Assembly: GCA_020279385.1 (NCBI GenBank)
Contig: GCA_020279385.1_4762.2
Source: a phage
Reading direction: 5' to 3' (one strand)
DNA length: 64,000 nt
In this document: one piece after another, positions 18,026 to 29,918 of the stretch
Numbering within the stretch: position 1 is the first letter of the stretch
Layout of the letters: every line of letters begins with the position of its first letter
Position numbers and translations under genes: made by a program
The notes under the pieces: generated by a model
The model's database searches: none
The model's input: the letters and a program-made list of their open reading frames with translations, nothing else
Told to the model about the DNA's origin: nothing

Positions 18026-18033
18026 AATAAGTG

Positions 18034-18062
18034 TTGACGCGGGGAGAAATCCCCGCTATAAT
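18034..18062 (+). promoter_or_regulatory. PeSL-type early promoter
   Basis: TTGACG - GCGGGGAGAAATCCCCGC hairpin as 17-nt spacer - TATAAT. Confidence 0.55.
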
Positions 18063-18093
18063 ACAACCATCAAAAACAAGTGAGGATTTTATT

Positions 18094-18261
18094 ATGACCA
18101 AATTAAAATGTGTTGCTGTAGATTTTGAGCTAGCTGATAGCTTTGTTGTCGGTGATGTATATGAGGCTCGATATGATGGGACTTGCTACTACGTTGAGGA
18201 TGAATACGGCGTAGAATGGGCTATTCTTCCCGATGATAAATGTTTTGAGGTTGTAGGATAA
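18094..18261 (+). CDS. Hypothetical small protein (55 aa)
   Basis: ATG after GTGAGG RBS; track ORF start at 18031 lies inside the promoter. Confidence 0.45.
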   Translation: MTKLKCVAVDFELADSFVVGDVYEARYDGTCYYVEDEYGVEWAILPDDKCFEVVG

Positions 18262-18434
18262 TGGCTACTGTATGGTTATTGATTGCAATAAGCAATTCAA
18301 TGTATAATTACGGAAATATGTCAAGCATTGAGTTTGCAACAAAGCAGGATTGCGTTAAAGCTCGCGAGATTATCCGTGAAGACAATAAACGCTTTATGAA
18401 TCTATATTGCGTTGAAAAACAAAAGGTGAACTAA
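18261..18434 (+). CDS. Hypothetical small protein (57 aa), paralogue A
   Basis: MATVWLLIAISNS...; start overlaps upstream stop (TAATG); paralogue of next ORF. Confidence 0.45.
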   Translation: MATVWLLIAISNSMYNYGNMSSIEFATKQDCVKAREIIREDNKRFMNLYCVEKQKVN

Positions 18435-18601
18435 TGGCTACATTATGGTTATTGCTTTCCGTTAGCGTAGGATCATATAATAAAGGAACTGTTACCAGCG
18501 TGGAGTTTTCATCACATCAAAGCTGTTTTGAAGCCGTGCAGGAATTGCAACAGGATAACGAAATAAACAGAAATACTAAGTTCTTTTGTGTTAAAAAGTG
18601 A
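18434..18601 (+). CDS. Hypothetical small protein (55 aa), paralogue B
   Basis: MATLWLLLSVSVG...; TAATG coupling; shares MATxWLL, SxEF, FxCV with previous ORF. Confidence 0.45.
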   Translation: MATLWLLLSVSVGSYNKGTVTSVEFSSHQSCFEAVQELQQDNEINRNTKFFCVKK

Positions 18602-18616
18602 TAGTGAGGTGAATTA

Positions 18617-19804
18617 ATGAGCGTATTTAACCGCGAACATGTTGATATTATGAACGAACCGATGTTTCTGGGTAGTGGGTTGGGTATCGCTCGCTATGAT
18701 ATTCAGCGTCATCAAGTATTTGAAGAACTGATCGAAAAGCAATTGTCATTTTTCTGGCGTCCCGAAGAGATTTCACTTGCAACCGACCGCATACAATATC
18801 TTAATATGGGTGACGTTGAAAAGCGTTTCTTTACCGAAAACTTGAAGTATCAGACATTACTTGATTCTATTCAAGGTCGCGCACCGTCCGCAGCATTTGG
18901 TCCAATTGTATCTGATCCAACTCTCGATACATGGTTGCAAACATGGACATTCAGCGAAACGATTCATAGCCGAAGCTATACACACATTATGCGTAACTGT
19001 TTCATTGATCCGGCTAGTGAGTTCGACCAGATCATCGATAACCCTGCTATCATGAAGCGAGCGGAATCTATCGGGAAATATTATGATGATGTTCTTTATT
19101 GGATTCGTAAGTATGAGAATGCAAAAGAAGATCTCCGCTATTGGGAAGAAGAAGTTCTCCACCACTATTGGGAAGAACGAGACGATCAGACAGAATTAGA
19201 TGATGCAAGAAGATTTTTTGAAGATACAAAACGAGATCTGATGGCTTCGATTTATCTGTGTGCACACTGCGTCAATGCACTGGAAGCAATCCGTTTTTAT
19301 GTGTCCTTTGCATGTACTTTCAGCTTTGCCGAACGTGGTTTACTGGAAGGTAACGCGAAGATCATGAAATTTATTGCGCGTGATGAACAACTTCATTTAA
19401 AAGGCACACAATACATTATTCGTCAATGGCAAACGGGGGGTGATGGTGATGAGTGGAAACAGATTGCGGAAGAACTTGAAGGCGAAGCAACGAAAATCTT
19501 TCTGGATGTTGTCGAGCAAGAAAAAGAATGGGTAGACCACCTATTCGCAATGGGGGCAATTCCTAACCTGTCACCGGAAATTCTGAAAACCTATGTAGAA
19601 TACCTGGCAGATTCCCGTATGCGTGCTGTCGGACTGAAAAGCCCGTTTAGTGTTCGTCGTCATCCGTTACCGTGGATGCGTAAGTGGTTAAACTCTGACG
19701 AAGTTCAAAACGCGGCGCAAGAAGTAGAGATTATGTATCTGGTGTCTCAGGTTAATACCGATTTAACAGACGATGACTACAACCGATTCGGTAAATATCT
19801 ATGA
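18617..19804 (+). CDS. nrdB: Ribonucleotide reductase small subunit
   Basis: 395 aa, position after nrdA; continuous frame. Confidence 0.9.
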   Translation: MSVFNREHVDIMNEPMFLGSGLGIARYDIQRHQVFEELIEKQLSFFWRPEEISLATDRIQYLNMGDVEKRFFTENLKYQTLLDSIQGRAPSAAFGPIVSDPTLDTWLQTWTFSETIHSRSYTHIMRNCFIDPASEFDQIIDNPAIMKRAESIGKYYDDVLYWIRKYENAKEDLRYWEEEVLHHYWEERDDQTELDDARRFFEDTKRDLMASIYLCAHCVNALEAIRFYVSFACTFSFAERGLLEGNAKIMKFIARDEQLHLKGTQYIIRQWQTGGDGDEWKQIAEELEGEATKIFLDVVEQEKEWVDHLFAMGAIPNLSPEILKTYVEYLADSRMRAVGLKSPFSVRRHPLPWMRKWLNSDEVQNAAQEVEIMYLVSQVNTDLTDDDYNRFGKYL

Positions 19805-20277
19805 TATATTTTGTCGATTTAGATTTTACGATCACAGATCCAACACATCGACTAGCAAAGATGCCAACCGAAAATCTTGATAAAGTCGAGTCATGGATCG
19901 AATATAACAAGGCATGTGGGGGAGATTCCCCCATTTACGATGTAATTCGTGTTATTAATGCTCTTTCCGACAACGGGCATTTGATTTACATCCTCACCGG
20001 ACGAAGTTCACATGCTTACATGGAAACAATTGATTGGTTAATTTCTAACGGGGTGTGTTTTGATAAAATCTTTATGAGAGGCCGTACCGATTCCCGTAAA
20101 GATTATCACATCAAATTAGAGGTAATTAAATCCTTTGATAAAGATGAAGTTGTCGGAGTCTTTGAGGATAACCCAGAAGTGATTAAAGTTTTGCGTGAAA
20201 ATGGTTATCGTGTCTTTGACGTAGGAAATCACAAAGATAAGACGCGAGCGGATATTGCAAATCACGGTCATGATTAA
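19801..20277 (+). CDS. HAD-superfamily phosphatase-like protein (putative nucleotidase)
   Basis: N-terminal VDLDFTIT (DxDxT-like), LTGRS, FEDNP. Confidence 0.5.
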   Translation: MIYFVDLDFTITDPTHRLAKMPTENLDKVESWIEYNKACGGDSPIYDVIRVINALSDNGHLIYILTGRSSHAYMETIDWLISNGVCFDKIFMRGRTDSRKDYHIKLEVIKSFDKDEVVGVFEDNPEVIKVLRENGYRVFDVGNHKDKTRADIANHGHD

Positions 20278-20286
20278 TGTTTGTTC

Positions 20287-20314
20287 AAAGTCGCCCATAG
20301 TGGCGACTTTTTTG
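20287..20314 (+). terminator. Rho-independent terminator
   Basis: AGTCGCCCATAGTGGCGACT hairpin followed by TTTTTTG. Confidence 0.7.
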
Positions 20315-20324
20315 TTATTGGGTG

Positions 20325-20353
20325 TTGATAATCGGATCTTGCCATAGCATAAT
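20325..20353 (+). promoter_or_regulatory. Sigma70-like early promoter
   Basis: TTGATA - 17 nt - CATAAT, then CGCACATCGAAACGGAGGAACAT ATG leader. Confidence 0.45.
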
Positions 20354-20377
20354 ACGCACATCGAAACGGAGGAACAT

Positions 20378-20596
20378 ATGGAAACAGAAGAACAAGTCAT
20401 TGCATATTTTCATCGTAAAAAGATGAAACTTAGAATCGAAAAACAGTACATCAATCACTATATTGACCGAGTCCACTTAACAAGTACACCTTACCTATTC
20501 CGGTTGATAAACCCTCGAAAACGGTGGGATAAGTTGGATAGAAACACAAAAATAATTGATAAGCTCACTCAATGGTGGAATGAATACAACAAGTAA
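20378..20596 (+). CDS. Hypothetical protein (72 aa)
   Basis: ORF immediately after promoter/leader. Confidence 0.45.
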   Translation: METEEQVIAYFHRKKMKLRIEKQYINHYIDRVHLTSTPYLFRLINPRKRWDKLDRNTKIIDKLTQWWNEYNK

Positions 20597-20602
20597 AAAG
20601 TA

Positions 20603-20631
20603 GTTGACACTGAATAACGGGGGTAGTAATA
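20603..20631 (+). promoter_or_regulatory. PeSL-type early promoter (copy 1 of near-identical pair)
   Basis: TTGACA - 17 nt - TAATAT embedded in GGGGGTAGTAATATACCCCC stem-loop, then CATCGAAACGAAAC leader. Confidence 0.55.
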
Positions 20632-20665
20632 TACCCCCATCGAAACGAAACAAAGGAGAATCAAA

Positions 20666-20884
20666 ATGAAATTTACTTGCACCGACTCTATCAGCAAACA
20701 CTTTGTAGTAGGAGAAGTATACGAATCTACTACCATTCGCCAGCGTGACCTGATGGGTCGCCTTTACAATCAGCCAGTATTCATTATTGGTGAAGAATTG
20801 TTCTACATTGAAAACCGTCCGTGGGTTGCTTTCAATAAACGAGGACGCAAGGTAGCAAAATTCGAACTTGTCATTAAAAAGTAG
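20666..20884 (+). CDS. Hypothetical protein (72 aa), PeSL-flanked cassette
   Basis: ORF bracketed by two near-identical PeSL repeats. Confidence 0.5.
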   Translation: MKFTCTDSISKHFVVGEVYESTTIRQRDLMGRLYNQPVFIIGEELFYIENRPWVAFNKRGRKVAKFELVIKK

Positions 20885-20913
20885 TTGACAGCATGAAACG
20901 GGGGTAGTAATAT
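20885..20913 (+). promoter_or_regulatory. PeSL-type early promoter (copy 2)
   Basis: TTGACA - 17 nt - TAATAT in GGGGGTAGTAATATACCCCC stem-loop. Confidence 0.55.
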
Positions 20914-20954
20914 ACCCCCATCGAAACGAAACTAACTTACTAAGGAGTATCAAG

Positions 20955-21353
20955 ATGATTAAATTTCAAACTCGCAAAGACGTTCTGGACTTCGTTAAAG
21001 TTTTCGGTTACGCTGCATTGCAACATGCAATGGACAAAATGACCATCTCCCCAGATCAGACTATGCTGATCCGTATGGTTAAAGCAACCGCCTACAAAAA
21101 CGACATTACCCTCTCAGAAATCAACGACGGTAATAATGTCCGCGAGGTAATTGTTTCTTTCGAATCACCGAAAATTGGCGGTTTTCATACCACGATGTTA
21201 GGTGAAATCACTGTCACTGTATACGGGCAAGGTGGCGGAGTGTTTACCGTCAAAGAAGCAATGGAAAACGGAACACTGAACAAAGAAAAACTGGAATTTG
21301 TCCTGAAAATCATCAAGGAGCGTAACGAAGCTCGCGATATTCTGGAAAGTTAA
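20955..21353 (+). CDS. Hypothetical protein (132 aa)
   Basis: ORF with AGGAG RBS. Confidence 0.5.
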   Translation: MIKFQTRKDVLDFVKVFGYAALQHAMDKMTISPDQTMLIRMVKATAYKNDITLSEINDGNNVREVIVSFESPKIGGFHTTMLGEITVTVYGQGGGVFTVKEAMENGTLNKEKLEFVLKIIKERNEARDILES

Positions 21354-21358
21354 TAAGG

Positions 21359-21385
21359 TGGGCGGGAGAAATCCCGCCTTTGTTG
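21359..21385 (+). terminator. Stem-loop / weak terminator
   Basis: GGCGGGAGAAATCCCGCC hairpin followed by TTTGTTGTG. Confidence 0.5.
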
Positions 21386-21403
21386 TGACGTGAGGAAAGG
21401 ATA

Positions 21404-21865
21404 ATGATTAATGAGCTAATAGAAAACTATGGATTCGTTAAATATTCATGTTTAGAGTGTAAAGATGGTGATGTGATTCTACCGCCTCAGAAGAACCGTT
21501 TAAATGTTCTTTACGCTATTGTGGTTGATGATGAACTGGTATATATTGGTCAGACTGTTAATCTCAGAAAGCGGATCAATTATTACCGGACTAGCATTAA
21601 CAGACAGACACCAACGGCGGATACTCGCAAGAGTAAGAATATTCATAAGGCGCTAGAGGAAGGGAAGACAGTAACATTCTATTACCGCCAGTGCTTTGAG
21701 TTATATATTGAGAATCCAACGGGTAAAGATATTATAAGCACTGCCGATATCGAAGAACCTGTTTTGATCACCAAATTTAAACCAGAATGGAACACAAATT
21801 ATGTCAACAAAAGAAAACAACAAAAAAGTTTTAGCATTGTTCAAAAATCTGATGGCACTATGTGA
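21404..21865 (+). CDS. denA: Endonuclease II (GIY-YIG family)
   Basis: YAIVVDDELVYIGQTVNLRKRINYYRTSINR matches T4 DenA as recalled (YAIAINDELVYIGKTKNLRKRINYYRTAINR). Confidence 0.85.
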   Translation: MINELIENYGFVKYSCLECKDGDVILPPQKNRLNVLYAIVVDDELVYIGQTVNLRKRINYYRTSINRQTPTADTRKSKNIHKALEEGKTVTFYYRQCFELYIENPTGKDIISTADIEEPVLITKFKPEWNTNYVNKRKQQKSFSIVQKSDGTM

Positions 21866-23338: not shown

Positions 23339-23787
23339 GCATAGAAATATTGTCTACGCAAGAGCAGATAAACAATTTTAATCTTGTTGATTATCTGGGG
23401 ATAGGTGCAAGCATTATTATCCTGATGGTGTTTTCAATTTTCGTGATACACTGGATGTTTAAGAAAGCACATAAGAATTTTCAGACCGCCATAATCCATG
23501 TCTTCGCTGTGCCTATTGTATTTGCGCTTTCTTCGTGTACAATGGACCATTATTCACAGGAACCGAAATTACATCCTCCACTACCAGCACCAATAGAAAA
23601 AGTTGACATTGACCTGAAAGTGGATACAATAGACGGTAAACCTAGAGTTTCTATGTCGTGGGAGGACTCCCAAAAATTCAGAGTCTGGCTTGCGGATATT
23701 AAGAGATATACACTTGAAAGTAAGTTGATCATGTGTTATTATCGAAAAGAACTTAATGAGGAACGGTGCAAACCGAAGGAGAAATAA
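23335..23787 (+). CDS. Putative o-spanin lipoprotein (Rz1-like; PseT.2-like); alternative start near 23455
   Basis: Lipobox-like FALSSC after a hydrophobic stretch, then proline-rich PKLHPPLPAP; internal Met (MFKKAHKNF...) gives a canonical lipoprotein signal peptide. Confidence 0.4.
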   Translation: MSIEILSTQEQINNFNLVDYLGIGASIIILMVFSIFVIHWMFKKAHKNFQTAIIHVFAVPIVFALSSCTMDHYSQEPKLHPPLPAPIEKVDIDLKVDTIDGKPRVSMSWEDSQKFRVWLADIKRYTLESKLIMCYYRKELNEERCKPKEK

Positions 23788-24665
23788 TGCCGAAATGTGA
23801 AGTGATTTTAACCGTTGGTTGTTCTGGGTCCGGTAAAACTACATGGGCTATGGAAACATGTAAAAGGTTTAGTAATTATCGTAATGTGAATCGTGATGAC
23901 CTTCGTCTTATGTTGTTTGGTGTTGACTCACTTTTGAAATACAAATATACTAAGGAAAAGGAAAAGCTGGTAGAGTCTATTCAGAGAATGATTGCTCGCG
24001 AGACTCTATCACGCGGATTGAGTATCATTATCTCTGATACCAACCTGAAAGAAAAACATCGTGTATTCTACAAAGAACTTGCAAAAGAATTTAACGCGGT
24101 GTATACTGAACAAGTGTTCAATGAACCGTTTGAGACACTAAAGAAACGTAATTTCTATCGCGGCGAGAAAGCAATTCCACTTTCTCATTTGCGTAACCAA
24201 TTTTATCTGATGCAGGAATATATGGGTCAAGAAGTATACAAACCGAATACTATGCTGCCAAAGGCAGTGATCTTTGATATTGATGGAACATTAGCGGATA
24301 AGGGCGGTCGTCATCCGTTTGACTGGACAAAGGTCAAAGAAGATAAACCACGTCAGCAAGTGGTCGAAATGCTTAAACTGTATCGTGATAATGGTTATCG
24401 TATCATTACATGCTCAGGGCGTGAGGATGTTTGCGAAGAAGATACTCTGCAATGGTTGCGTGAACAGGGTATTGAACCTAGTGATCACTTTCAACGTGAA
24501 ACTAATGATCGTCGTCCTGATCATGAAGTGAAGAAAGAGATCTTCTTCTCTGAAATTGCACCGCGTTATCATGTTGTTTTGGCGGTAGATGACCGTGATC
24601 AAGTGGTTGACATGTACCGCGCAATTGGTGTAGAATGTTTTCAGGTTAACTACGGAGACTTTTAA
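23787..24665 (+). CDS. pseT: Polynucleotide kinase / 3'-phosphatase
   Basis: Walker A GCSGSGKTTW, HAD-like VIFDIDGTLA, C-terminal AIGVECFQVNYGDF match T4 Pnk as recalled. Confidence 0.9.
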   Translation: MPKCEVILTVGCSGSGKTTWAMETCKRFSNYRNVNRDDLRLMLFGVDSLLKYKYTKEKEKLVESIQRMIARETLSRGLSIIISDTNLKEKHRVFYKELAKEFNAVYTEQVFNEPFETLKKRNFYRGEKAIPLSHLRNQFYLMQEYMGQEVYKPNTMLPKAVIFDIDGTLADKGGRHPFDWTKVKEDKPRQQVVEMLKLYRDNGYRIITCSGREDVCEEDTLQWLREQGIEPSDHFQRETNDRRPDHEVKKEIFFSEIAPRYHVVLAVDDRDQVVDMYRAIGVECFQVNYGDF

Positions 24666-28750: not shown

Positions 28751-28779
28751 TTGACAGGGGATCACCGATCCCCTATACT
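28751..28779 (+). promoter_or_regulatory. PeSL-type early promoter
   Basis: TTGACA - GGGGATCACCGATCCCC palindrome as 17-nt spacer - TATACT; then ...CGAAACGA...AGGAGAATCAA leader. Confidence 0.55.
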
Positions 28780-29889: not shown

Positions 29890-29918
29890 TTGACAGGGGA
29901 TCGGTGATCCCCTATAAT
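29890..29918 (+). promoter_or_regulatory. PeSL-type early promoter
   Basis: TTGACA - GGGGATCGGTGATCCCC - TATAAT. Confidence 0.55.

Follow-up and report, generated by a model that had tools for sequence, protein, structure and literature searches.

Promoter-early stem-loops flanking a 72-residue ORFan of an RB49-like phage and their probable role in the deletion and exchange of gene cassettes

A class of compact regulatory elements was described in 2010 in the phages RB49 and phi1 and termed PeSLs, for 'promoter-early stem-loop' (Arbiol et al., Genome Biol Evol 2:140, PMC2839356), and the description was extended in 2014 to PST/T4 and nt-1/KVP40 (Comeau et al., PMC4122927). Three parts define a PeSL: an AT-rich tract, a promoter for sigma-70 and a polyG/polyC stem-loop, which can take one of five positions relative to the promoter, the overlap of the stem with the -10 box being among the commonest subclasses; 51 copies have been counted in RB49 and 52 in phi1 (PMC2839356). 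Assays with lacZ revealed promoter function for PeSL193/192 and PeSL206/205 and terminator function for PeSL211/210, whose stem-loop cuts downstream lacZ about as much as rrnB T1 does, and whole PeSLs proved to be very strong promoters (PMC2839356). Mini-circles generated by recombination between nearby PeSLs were recovered by inverse PCR for ORF192 and ORF210 only, and the published crossover zones are the AT-rich tract, the interval from the -10 box to the Shine-Dalgarno sequence, and the Shine-Dalgarno sequence itself; the exchange was put down either to T4-type recombination, whose requirement for homology is below 50 bp, or to some other factor (PMC2839356). PeSL-mediated modular shuffling is accordingly a published concept (PMC2839356, PMC4122927).

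Two other systems invite comparison. The deletions between short direct repeats of T4 (Singer et al. 1982 and Mosig et al. 1998, as cited in PMC2839356) are likewise dependent on homology, of which T4-type recombination can use less than 50 bp, and GGGC/GCCC motifs occur at deletion endpoints (PMC2839356); they are laboratory mutants at arbitrary repeats, whereas the repeats considered here form a functional, dispersed regulatory family, so that the recombination products would stay correctly expressed. The analogy with integrons, whose cassettes are exchanged between attC and attI by IntI, was drawn by Arbiol et al. (PMC2839356), and it rests on promoter-associated single-ORF cassettes, structured repeats, and a circle that carries one repeat upon excision.

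The locus described here lies in a 64-kb stretch of phage DNA (the window), which belongs to a Krischvirus, an RB49-like T4-type coliphage. Escherichia phage vB_EcoM_Skers matches the region at 100% identity, and the other listed Krischvirus records match it at 96.7-98.4% (RB49, 97.4%; n=59 matching records). The comparison was based on these 59 Krischvirus records with flanks, six of which are RefSeq duplicates, which leaves about 53 distinct genomes. The deposited Skers genome (MW748999) measures 154.8 kb, at least 7 kb below every other listed Krischvirus record (162-176 kb) and about 9 kb under the commonest Krischvirus genome sizes; several cassettes may be missing from it, or the record may be incomplete.

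The early-gene region is arranged in the order nrdA, nrdB, a HAD phosphatase gene, a group of small ORFs, denA and rnlA, all features given below being on the + strand. In RB49 numbering, the small ORFs at the locus are 228, 227, 226 and 225, of which the window harbors 228-227-225. The upstream edge of this island is a canonical intrinsic terminator at 20287-20316 (9-bp hairpin and T run, -13.1 kcal/mol, z -4.3, called by the terminator scan), 3' of the HAD-phosphatase gene at 19801-20277, and its downstream edge is a second canonical intrinsic terminator at 21360-21386 (8-bp G/C hairpin with a T-rich tail, from folding and the terminator scan), ahead of denA (21404-21865). Between them are located the ORF228 homologue (20378-20596, 72 aa, phrog_18672), the focal 72-aa ORF, a homologue of RB49p227 with an ATG start (20666-20884, phrog_14957), and the ORF225 homologue (20955-21353, 132 aa, phrog_10173). 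The ORFs flanked by PeSLs here, the focal one included, have no Pfam match, and all three PHROG families are of unknown function.

The focal ORF is bracketed by two direct copies of a 61-nt repeat, at 20594-20654 and 20875-20935, which were found by a repeat search to be 88.5% identical without gaps, with a start-to-start spacing of 281 nt and a longest common exact run of 36 nt. A sequence-only reading of the stretch had proposed near-identical repeats on both sides of this ORF with the -10 hexamer inside the stem-loop, and both descriptions are borne out. The 29-mer GGGGGTAGTAATATACCCCCATCGAAACG occurs exactly twice in the 64 kb and in none of 100 dinucleotide-preserving shuffles. A weaker third copy at 20325-20368, whose 3'-half match covers 20345-20368, precedes the ORF at 20378-20596; it falls within the predicted promoter and leader of ORF228 (20325-20377; TTGATA, 17 nt, CATAAT, CATCGAAACG, GGAGG), a weaker member of the repeat family that is devoid of the G/C hairpin in the window strain and carries TTGATA as its -35 hexamer, where the relatives have TTGACA.

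The left element, which corresponds to RB49 PeSL 228/227, occupies 20594-20665 and the right one 20875-20954, as delineated by sequence, repeat search, folding and promoter scan, and for the right one also by alignment. Each opens with the A-rich tract TAAAAAGTAG (20594-20603 and 20875-20884), in which the stop codon of the preceding gene is embedded: the TAA of ORF228 provides the first three bases of the left repeat, and the TAG of the 72-aa ORF lies at 20882-20884. The tract is followed by a sigma-70 promoter of the form TTGACA-17-TAATAT, scoring 10/12 in both copies (20604-20632 and 20885-20913), with the -35 hexamers at 20604-20609 and 20885-20890 and the -10 hexamers at 20627-20632 and 20908-20913. 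The hairpins span 20619-20638 and 20900-20919; in the left copy GGGGGTA (20619-20625) pairs with TACCCCC (20632-20638) over 7 bp around the loop GTAATA (-14 kcal/mol, z = -3.2), so that the -10 hexamer sits in the loop and the 3' arm. The spacer between the -35 hexamer and the hairpin differs between the copies, being CTGAATAAC in one and GCATGAAAC in the other, and the motif CATCGAAACGAAAC is present in each. Transcription is predicted from the spacing to the sigma-70 -10 hexamer to start at A20639, within CATCGAAACG, and at A20920. The Shine-Dalgarno sequence AAGGAG (20653-20658 and 20942-20947) is placed 7 nt ahead of each ATG, and the intergenic spaces measure 69 and 70 nt; from its predicted promoter, the right element would drive the ORF225 homologue.

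A U tract is missing from the hairpin, which is not called by the terminator scan. Covariation in the stem is limited to one pair, found as G-C, G-U or A-U among seven distinct sequences, and 50 of 500 shuffles equal it. No match to Rfam was obtained at the gathering score, the two sub-threshold chance matches both being at the flanking terminators. The 3' half of the right element with its Shine-Dalgarno sequence (20903-20970) aligns over 68 nt at 81% identity with MT511058, the 46-kb genome of the unrelated small coliphage vB_EcoD_SU57, on whose side the match is the ribosome-binding region of a lipoprotein gene; this may be a chance match or a common promoter/leader module.

Compared with the published PeSLs, the two elements agree in the genus, in the upstream stop within an AT-rich tract, in the TTGACA-N17-TAnnnT promoter, in the GN-loop-CN stem over the -10 box, and in the Shine-Dalgarno sequence and start codon at the 3' end, within an intergenic space of at most about 100 bp. 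They also agree in their many copies (about 16 here), mostly in hyperplastic regions upstream of ORFans, and in indels or replacements bounded by PeSLs that leave a single chimera (ELT3 and AV108; phiS and the Skers type; ELT4, 011D4 and E26), with crossovers in the AT-rich/-35, -10-to-Shine-Dalgarno and Shine-Dalgarno zones. RB49 itself carries orthologous elements flanking RB49p227. Judged by every PeSL feature that can be read from sequence, the elements are PeSLs. The papers illustrate ORF192 and ORF210 instead, and nothing essential differs; in the accessible part of their text the ORF225-228 locus is not mentioned, RB49 and phi1 having the same gene content there. The kind of element has thus been known since 2010 from the same genus, and the variants of ELT3/AV108, phiS and the ELT4 type are only further instances from later-sequenced genomes. 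The best explanation of the locus, to which we assign a probability of roughly 90%, is that the two repeats are PeSLs whose recombination deletes or swaps the cassettes between them.

An inventory of the window, in which TTGACA-like and TAnnnT-like hexamers were scanned for and the CATCGAAACG sites were inspected, gave about 16 elements built alike, which are spread over the + strand from 11.9 to 38 kb, every one just 5' of a small ORF. The hairpin lies between the -35 and -10 hexamers in some of them (for example GGGGATCGGTGATCCCC at 29890 and 35526) and overlaps the -10 hexamer in others (20604, 20885, 30123 and 31665). The sequence-only reading had made its proposal dependent on the repeats being more alike than any two random promoters of the genome. 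The 120 pairs among the 16 elements have a median identity of 66% over these 61 nt, far below the 88.5% of the focal pair, whose likeness is nevertheless not unique, being equaled by a second subfamily (-35 starts at 28751, 29890, 33150 and 35526, + strand) with 88-90% identity and a 49-nt exact run. The repeats are chiefly regulatory elements, an early promoter with a hairpin, of a dispersed family, and not dedicated recombination sites. A distance of 5.6 kb separates the copies at 29890 and 35526, which have the 49-nt exact run in common, so that larger deletions or circles, spanning several genes, could conceivably arise between them. Another PeSL, with the hairpin GCGGGGAGAAATCCCCGC, was noticed at 18034-18062 (+) within the listed 76-aa ORF at 18031-18261; the true start of that ORF is probably the ATG near 18091, since its PHROG match spans residues 22-76. 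Paralogy between this ORF and the focal one was considered and rejected, as the sole match, a 13-residue stretch with FVVG(E/D)VYE (E 7e-4 in a single comparison), is too weak.

The evidence for recombination at the locus comes wholly from the comparison of genomes, which documents the deletion of the focal gene in relatives. Two of the 59 records, ELT3 and AV108, are without the 72-aa ORF and read ORF228, one PeSL, ORF226, ORF225, which is the precise absence with one repeat left behind that the sequence-only reading had suggested looking for, the single PeSL being chimeric in both. In ELT3 it is composed of the context and spacer of the left element followed by the 227/226 leader (…CATCGAAACGAAATACACTTTAAGGAGAATCAA-ATGAAC). 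In AV108 the leader of the left (228/227) element is kept (…GAAACAAAGGAGAATCAA) and is joined to ORF226 in the Shine-Dalgarno region, within AAGGAGAATCAAA. The ORF228 alleles of the two phages are 97.3% identical to each other, each being 98.6% identical to a different group, and their ORF225 alleles differ as well, that of AV108 being the kaaroe allele and that of ELT3 nearest to GEC-3S. These different junctions and different ORF228/ORF225 haplotypes favor two independent deletions. The alternative of one ancestral deletion followed by conversion of the PeSL would draw on a 2-nt deletion in the ORF228 promoter that ELT3 and AV108 have in common.

Both records have peculiarities of their own. 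In ELT3, denA is annotated with 255 nt versus 462, and several homopolymer runs are one base off all relatives, which suggests sequencing errors or a noisy assembly and is a caveat on the use of this record as evidence. In AV108, the 226/225 PeSL, 5' of the ORF225 homologue, is rearranged, the -35 hexamer being lost and the 12-mer TAGTAAGATACT duplicated (GCAGTTGGGGAGTAGTAAGATACTTAGTAAGATACTCCC), through either hairpin slippage or an assembly error.

Neighboring cassettes show the same behavior. ORF226 is held by 46 of the 59 records and is missing from 13, the window included, and at least two different junction types accompany its loss. In phiS a clean chimera is left, with the crossover in AGTTGACAGCAT (the -35 region) and the RB49 226/225 element making up everything 3' of it. 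Skers, G2494, ECD7, JK32 and JSE have the 227/226 element on the 5' side and the leader CTAACTTACTAAGGAGTATCAAG after it; the crossover in these genomes lies in or 3' of the hairpin core. Ec_Makalu_003, which keeps ORF226, has this leader natively, as the 3' half of its 226/225 PeSL. The right PeSL of the window is therefore itself a chimera, its 5' part as in RB49 PeSL 227/226 and its 3' leader as in the Makalu_003 226/225 variant, and its sequence is exactly what a crossover between the two PeSLs on either side of ORF226 would leave in a Makalu_003-like parent. Of the 46 records, 45 agree to 99-100% in the nucleotide sequence of ORF226, even where the ORF228 of the strains is up to 10% apart (phi1 versus others), a uniformity that fits either a recent spread of this cassette through recombination or strong constraint.

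Replacement and allele exchange at the locus were found as well. ELT4, 011D4 and E26 carry two unrelated 55-aa ORFs in place of ORF228, together with a different PeSL ahead of ORF227. Between phi1 and GEC-3S, ORF228 is 90% and ORF227 100% identical, and the last mismatches fall inside the left PeSL. Within that PeSL, the block TAATATACCCCC occurs in Skers, G2494, JK32, Brandy, GEC-3S and one IMG/VR contig, and the block TAAGATACTCCC in RB49, kaaroe, phi1, ECD7 and phiS; each block is also found in an adjacent PeSL, and this sharing between neighbors suggests conversion between PeSLs. At a single locus of 1 kb, the roughly 53 distinct genomes thus show four or more cassette arrangements, with several independent junctions that without exception lie within PeSLs.

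Promoter activity, terminator activity and mini-circle formation are ascribed to these copies by inference or from the literature, and on that footing the following mechanism can be proposed. Within about 70 nt, a PeSL would combine the stop codon of the gene before it, embedded in A-rich sequence, with an early promoter close to the consensus of the host sigma-70, a G5/C5 hairpin around the -10 hexamer, CATCGAAACG and what follows it, and a Shine-Dalgarno sequence. Since the predicted start lies immediately 3' of the hairpin, the latter would be outside the mRNA of its own promoter; only transcripts entering from upstream would carry it, at their 3' end, and these it would attenuate or terminate; the attenuator role is proposed for these hairpins by analogy with the published test of another PeSL (211/210). 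With incoming transcripts stopped in this way, each small ORF would be a self-contained, insulated early transcription unit. Neighboring PeSLs, which are directly repeated, are nearly identical over 30-60 nt and would for that reason be open to the homologous recombination of the phage. A crossover would then delete the intervening gene, leaving one chimeric and still functional PeSL and, according to the published model, releasing the gene as a mini-circle, and alleles or cassettes could also be swapped between co-infecting relatives. Units could thereby be deleted or swapped while promoter, hairpin and ribosome-binding site keep working. The exchange looks homology-driven, with no recombinase implied, because the crossovers vary among the -35 region, the hairpin/start core and the Shine-Dalgarno region.

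The likeness of the repeats might instead stem from functional convergence of strong early promoters, without any part in recombination, the deletions being unrelated to them. The A tract, TTGACA, the -10 hexamer, the CAT start and GGAG are consensus parts common to all PeSLs, whose pairwise identity has a median of already 66%, and the spacers CTGAATAAC and GCATGAAAC differ between the two copies, as convergence would allow. However, the 36-nt identity includes stem bases and leader positions that are filled otherwise in other functional PeSLs, all the indel boundaries examined (ELT3, AV108, phiS, the Skers type and the ELT4 type) lie inside a PeSL and leave one intact chimera, and the haplotype switch between phi1 and GEC-3S is also inside a PeSL. 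Convergence is accordingly disfavored and may be regarded as improbable.

Slightly less probable still is an integron-like, site-specific system, in which the G5...C5 hairpin would be recognized by a dedicated recombinase or a structure-specific nuclease and the ORF cassettes excised and inserted. Such a system would agree with the conservation of the hairpin, including one compensatory change, and Arbiol et al. raised the possibility by considering the exchange 'either homologous or site-specific' (PMC2839356). The crossovers, however, are not fixed, falling in the -35 region (phiS), in the hairpin/start core (ELT3 and the Skers type) and in the Shine-Dalgarno region (AV108), where an integron requires a tyrosine-recombinase integrase and a fixed attC/attI crossover; RB49 and phi1 are reported to have no known integrase, excisionase or recombinase other than the T4-type machinery (PMC2839356), and the ORF occurs in no second context in the phage records or the protein collection. 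The repeats also lack the imperfect palindrome with extrahelical bases of the attC type, and each cassette has a promoter of its own, unlike integron cassettes. The likeness to integrons is best taken as one of analogy and not of membership.

An ancient tandem duplication with diverged coding parts, to which the spacing of the three copies (279 and 281 nt) and the equal length of ORF228 and ORF227 (72 aa each) could point, is rejected, as the two proteins are without similarity (BLASTP gives no alignment at E <= 100, and their PHROG families differ), the next RB49 units measure 217 and about 470 nt, and members of the repeat family are scattered across more than 26 kb of the window.

To return to the preferred reading, recombination between PeSLs, the distribution of the focal ORF sets the extent of its mobility. 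The ORF was found in 57 of the 59 records, one copy each, with at least 97% amino-acid identity, all in Krischvirus. Mobility beyond the locus was sought by tblastn of 50,697 phage records, which returned the ORF only in Krischvirus and at the same locus, and by scans of IMG/VR with the protein and the 29-mer core, which returned only two Krischvirus contigs, again at the same locus. The protein forms one 90%-identity cluster in a collection of 5.8 billion proteins. The 72-aa ORF is a genus-restricted ORFan that is always found at one locus, with no sign of wider mobility, so that excision is documented and insertion elsewhere is not. The sequence-only reading had taken the direct repeats as the signature of a cassette that can be excised or inserted by recombination between them. 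Its excision half is supported by the junctions in ELT3 and AV108, and neighboring cassettes are gained, lost or swapped, while insertion at another place found no counterpart. A reader provided with the raw sequence alone had in this respect recovered the cassette logic correctly. The outcome is confirmatory and carries little weight as a discovery, although as a natural record of the mechanism it is cleaner than the comparison of two genomes made originally.

One mildly new question is whether the hairpin stimulates conversion or recombination actively or merely supplies homology. Because the TAATATACCCCC and TAAGATACTCCC blocks are shared by adjacent PeSLs across strains with differing coding haplotypes, PeSLs could conceivably go beyond passive homology and undergo active concerted evolution, in which the hairpin or a cruciform would stimulate conversion or be cut by a structure-specific phage nuclease; this we consider a doubtful though not negligible prospect. 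If true, active conversion would keep neighboring PeSLs homologous and the ORFan cassettes exchangeable, which would amount to an integrase-free, integron-like system.

Two minor observations concern the surrounding early genes. Between nrdA and nrdB, the adjacent small ORFs at 18261-18434 and 18434-18601 (+; 57 and 55 aa) encode paralogous proteins with 40% identity (E 1e-16), both beginning with MAT(V/L)WLL, and by their sequences they represent the tandem duplication of one small protein, whose function is unknown and whose N-terminus may be hydrophobic. Furthermore, the window harbors two genes for HAD/PNKP-type phosphatases, at 19801-20277 and 23766-24665 (+). The product of the former, which adjoins nrdB, is a phosphatase only (158 aa) and is named 'polynucleotide kinase' in databases, yet only the phosphatase domain matches (PF25109), while that of the latter (299 aa) carries in its ORF translation an N-terminal P-loop-like GCSGSGKT motif and is presumably a full polynucleotide kinase/phosphatase.
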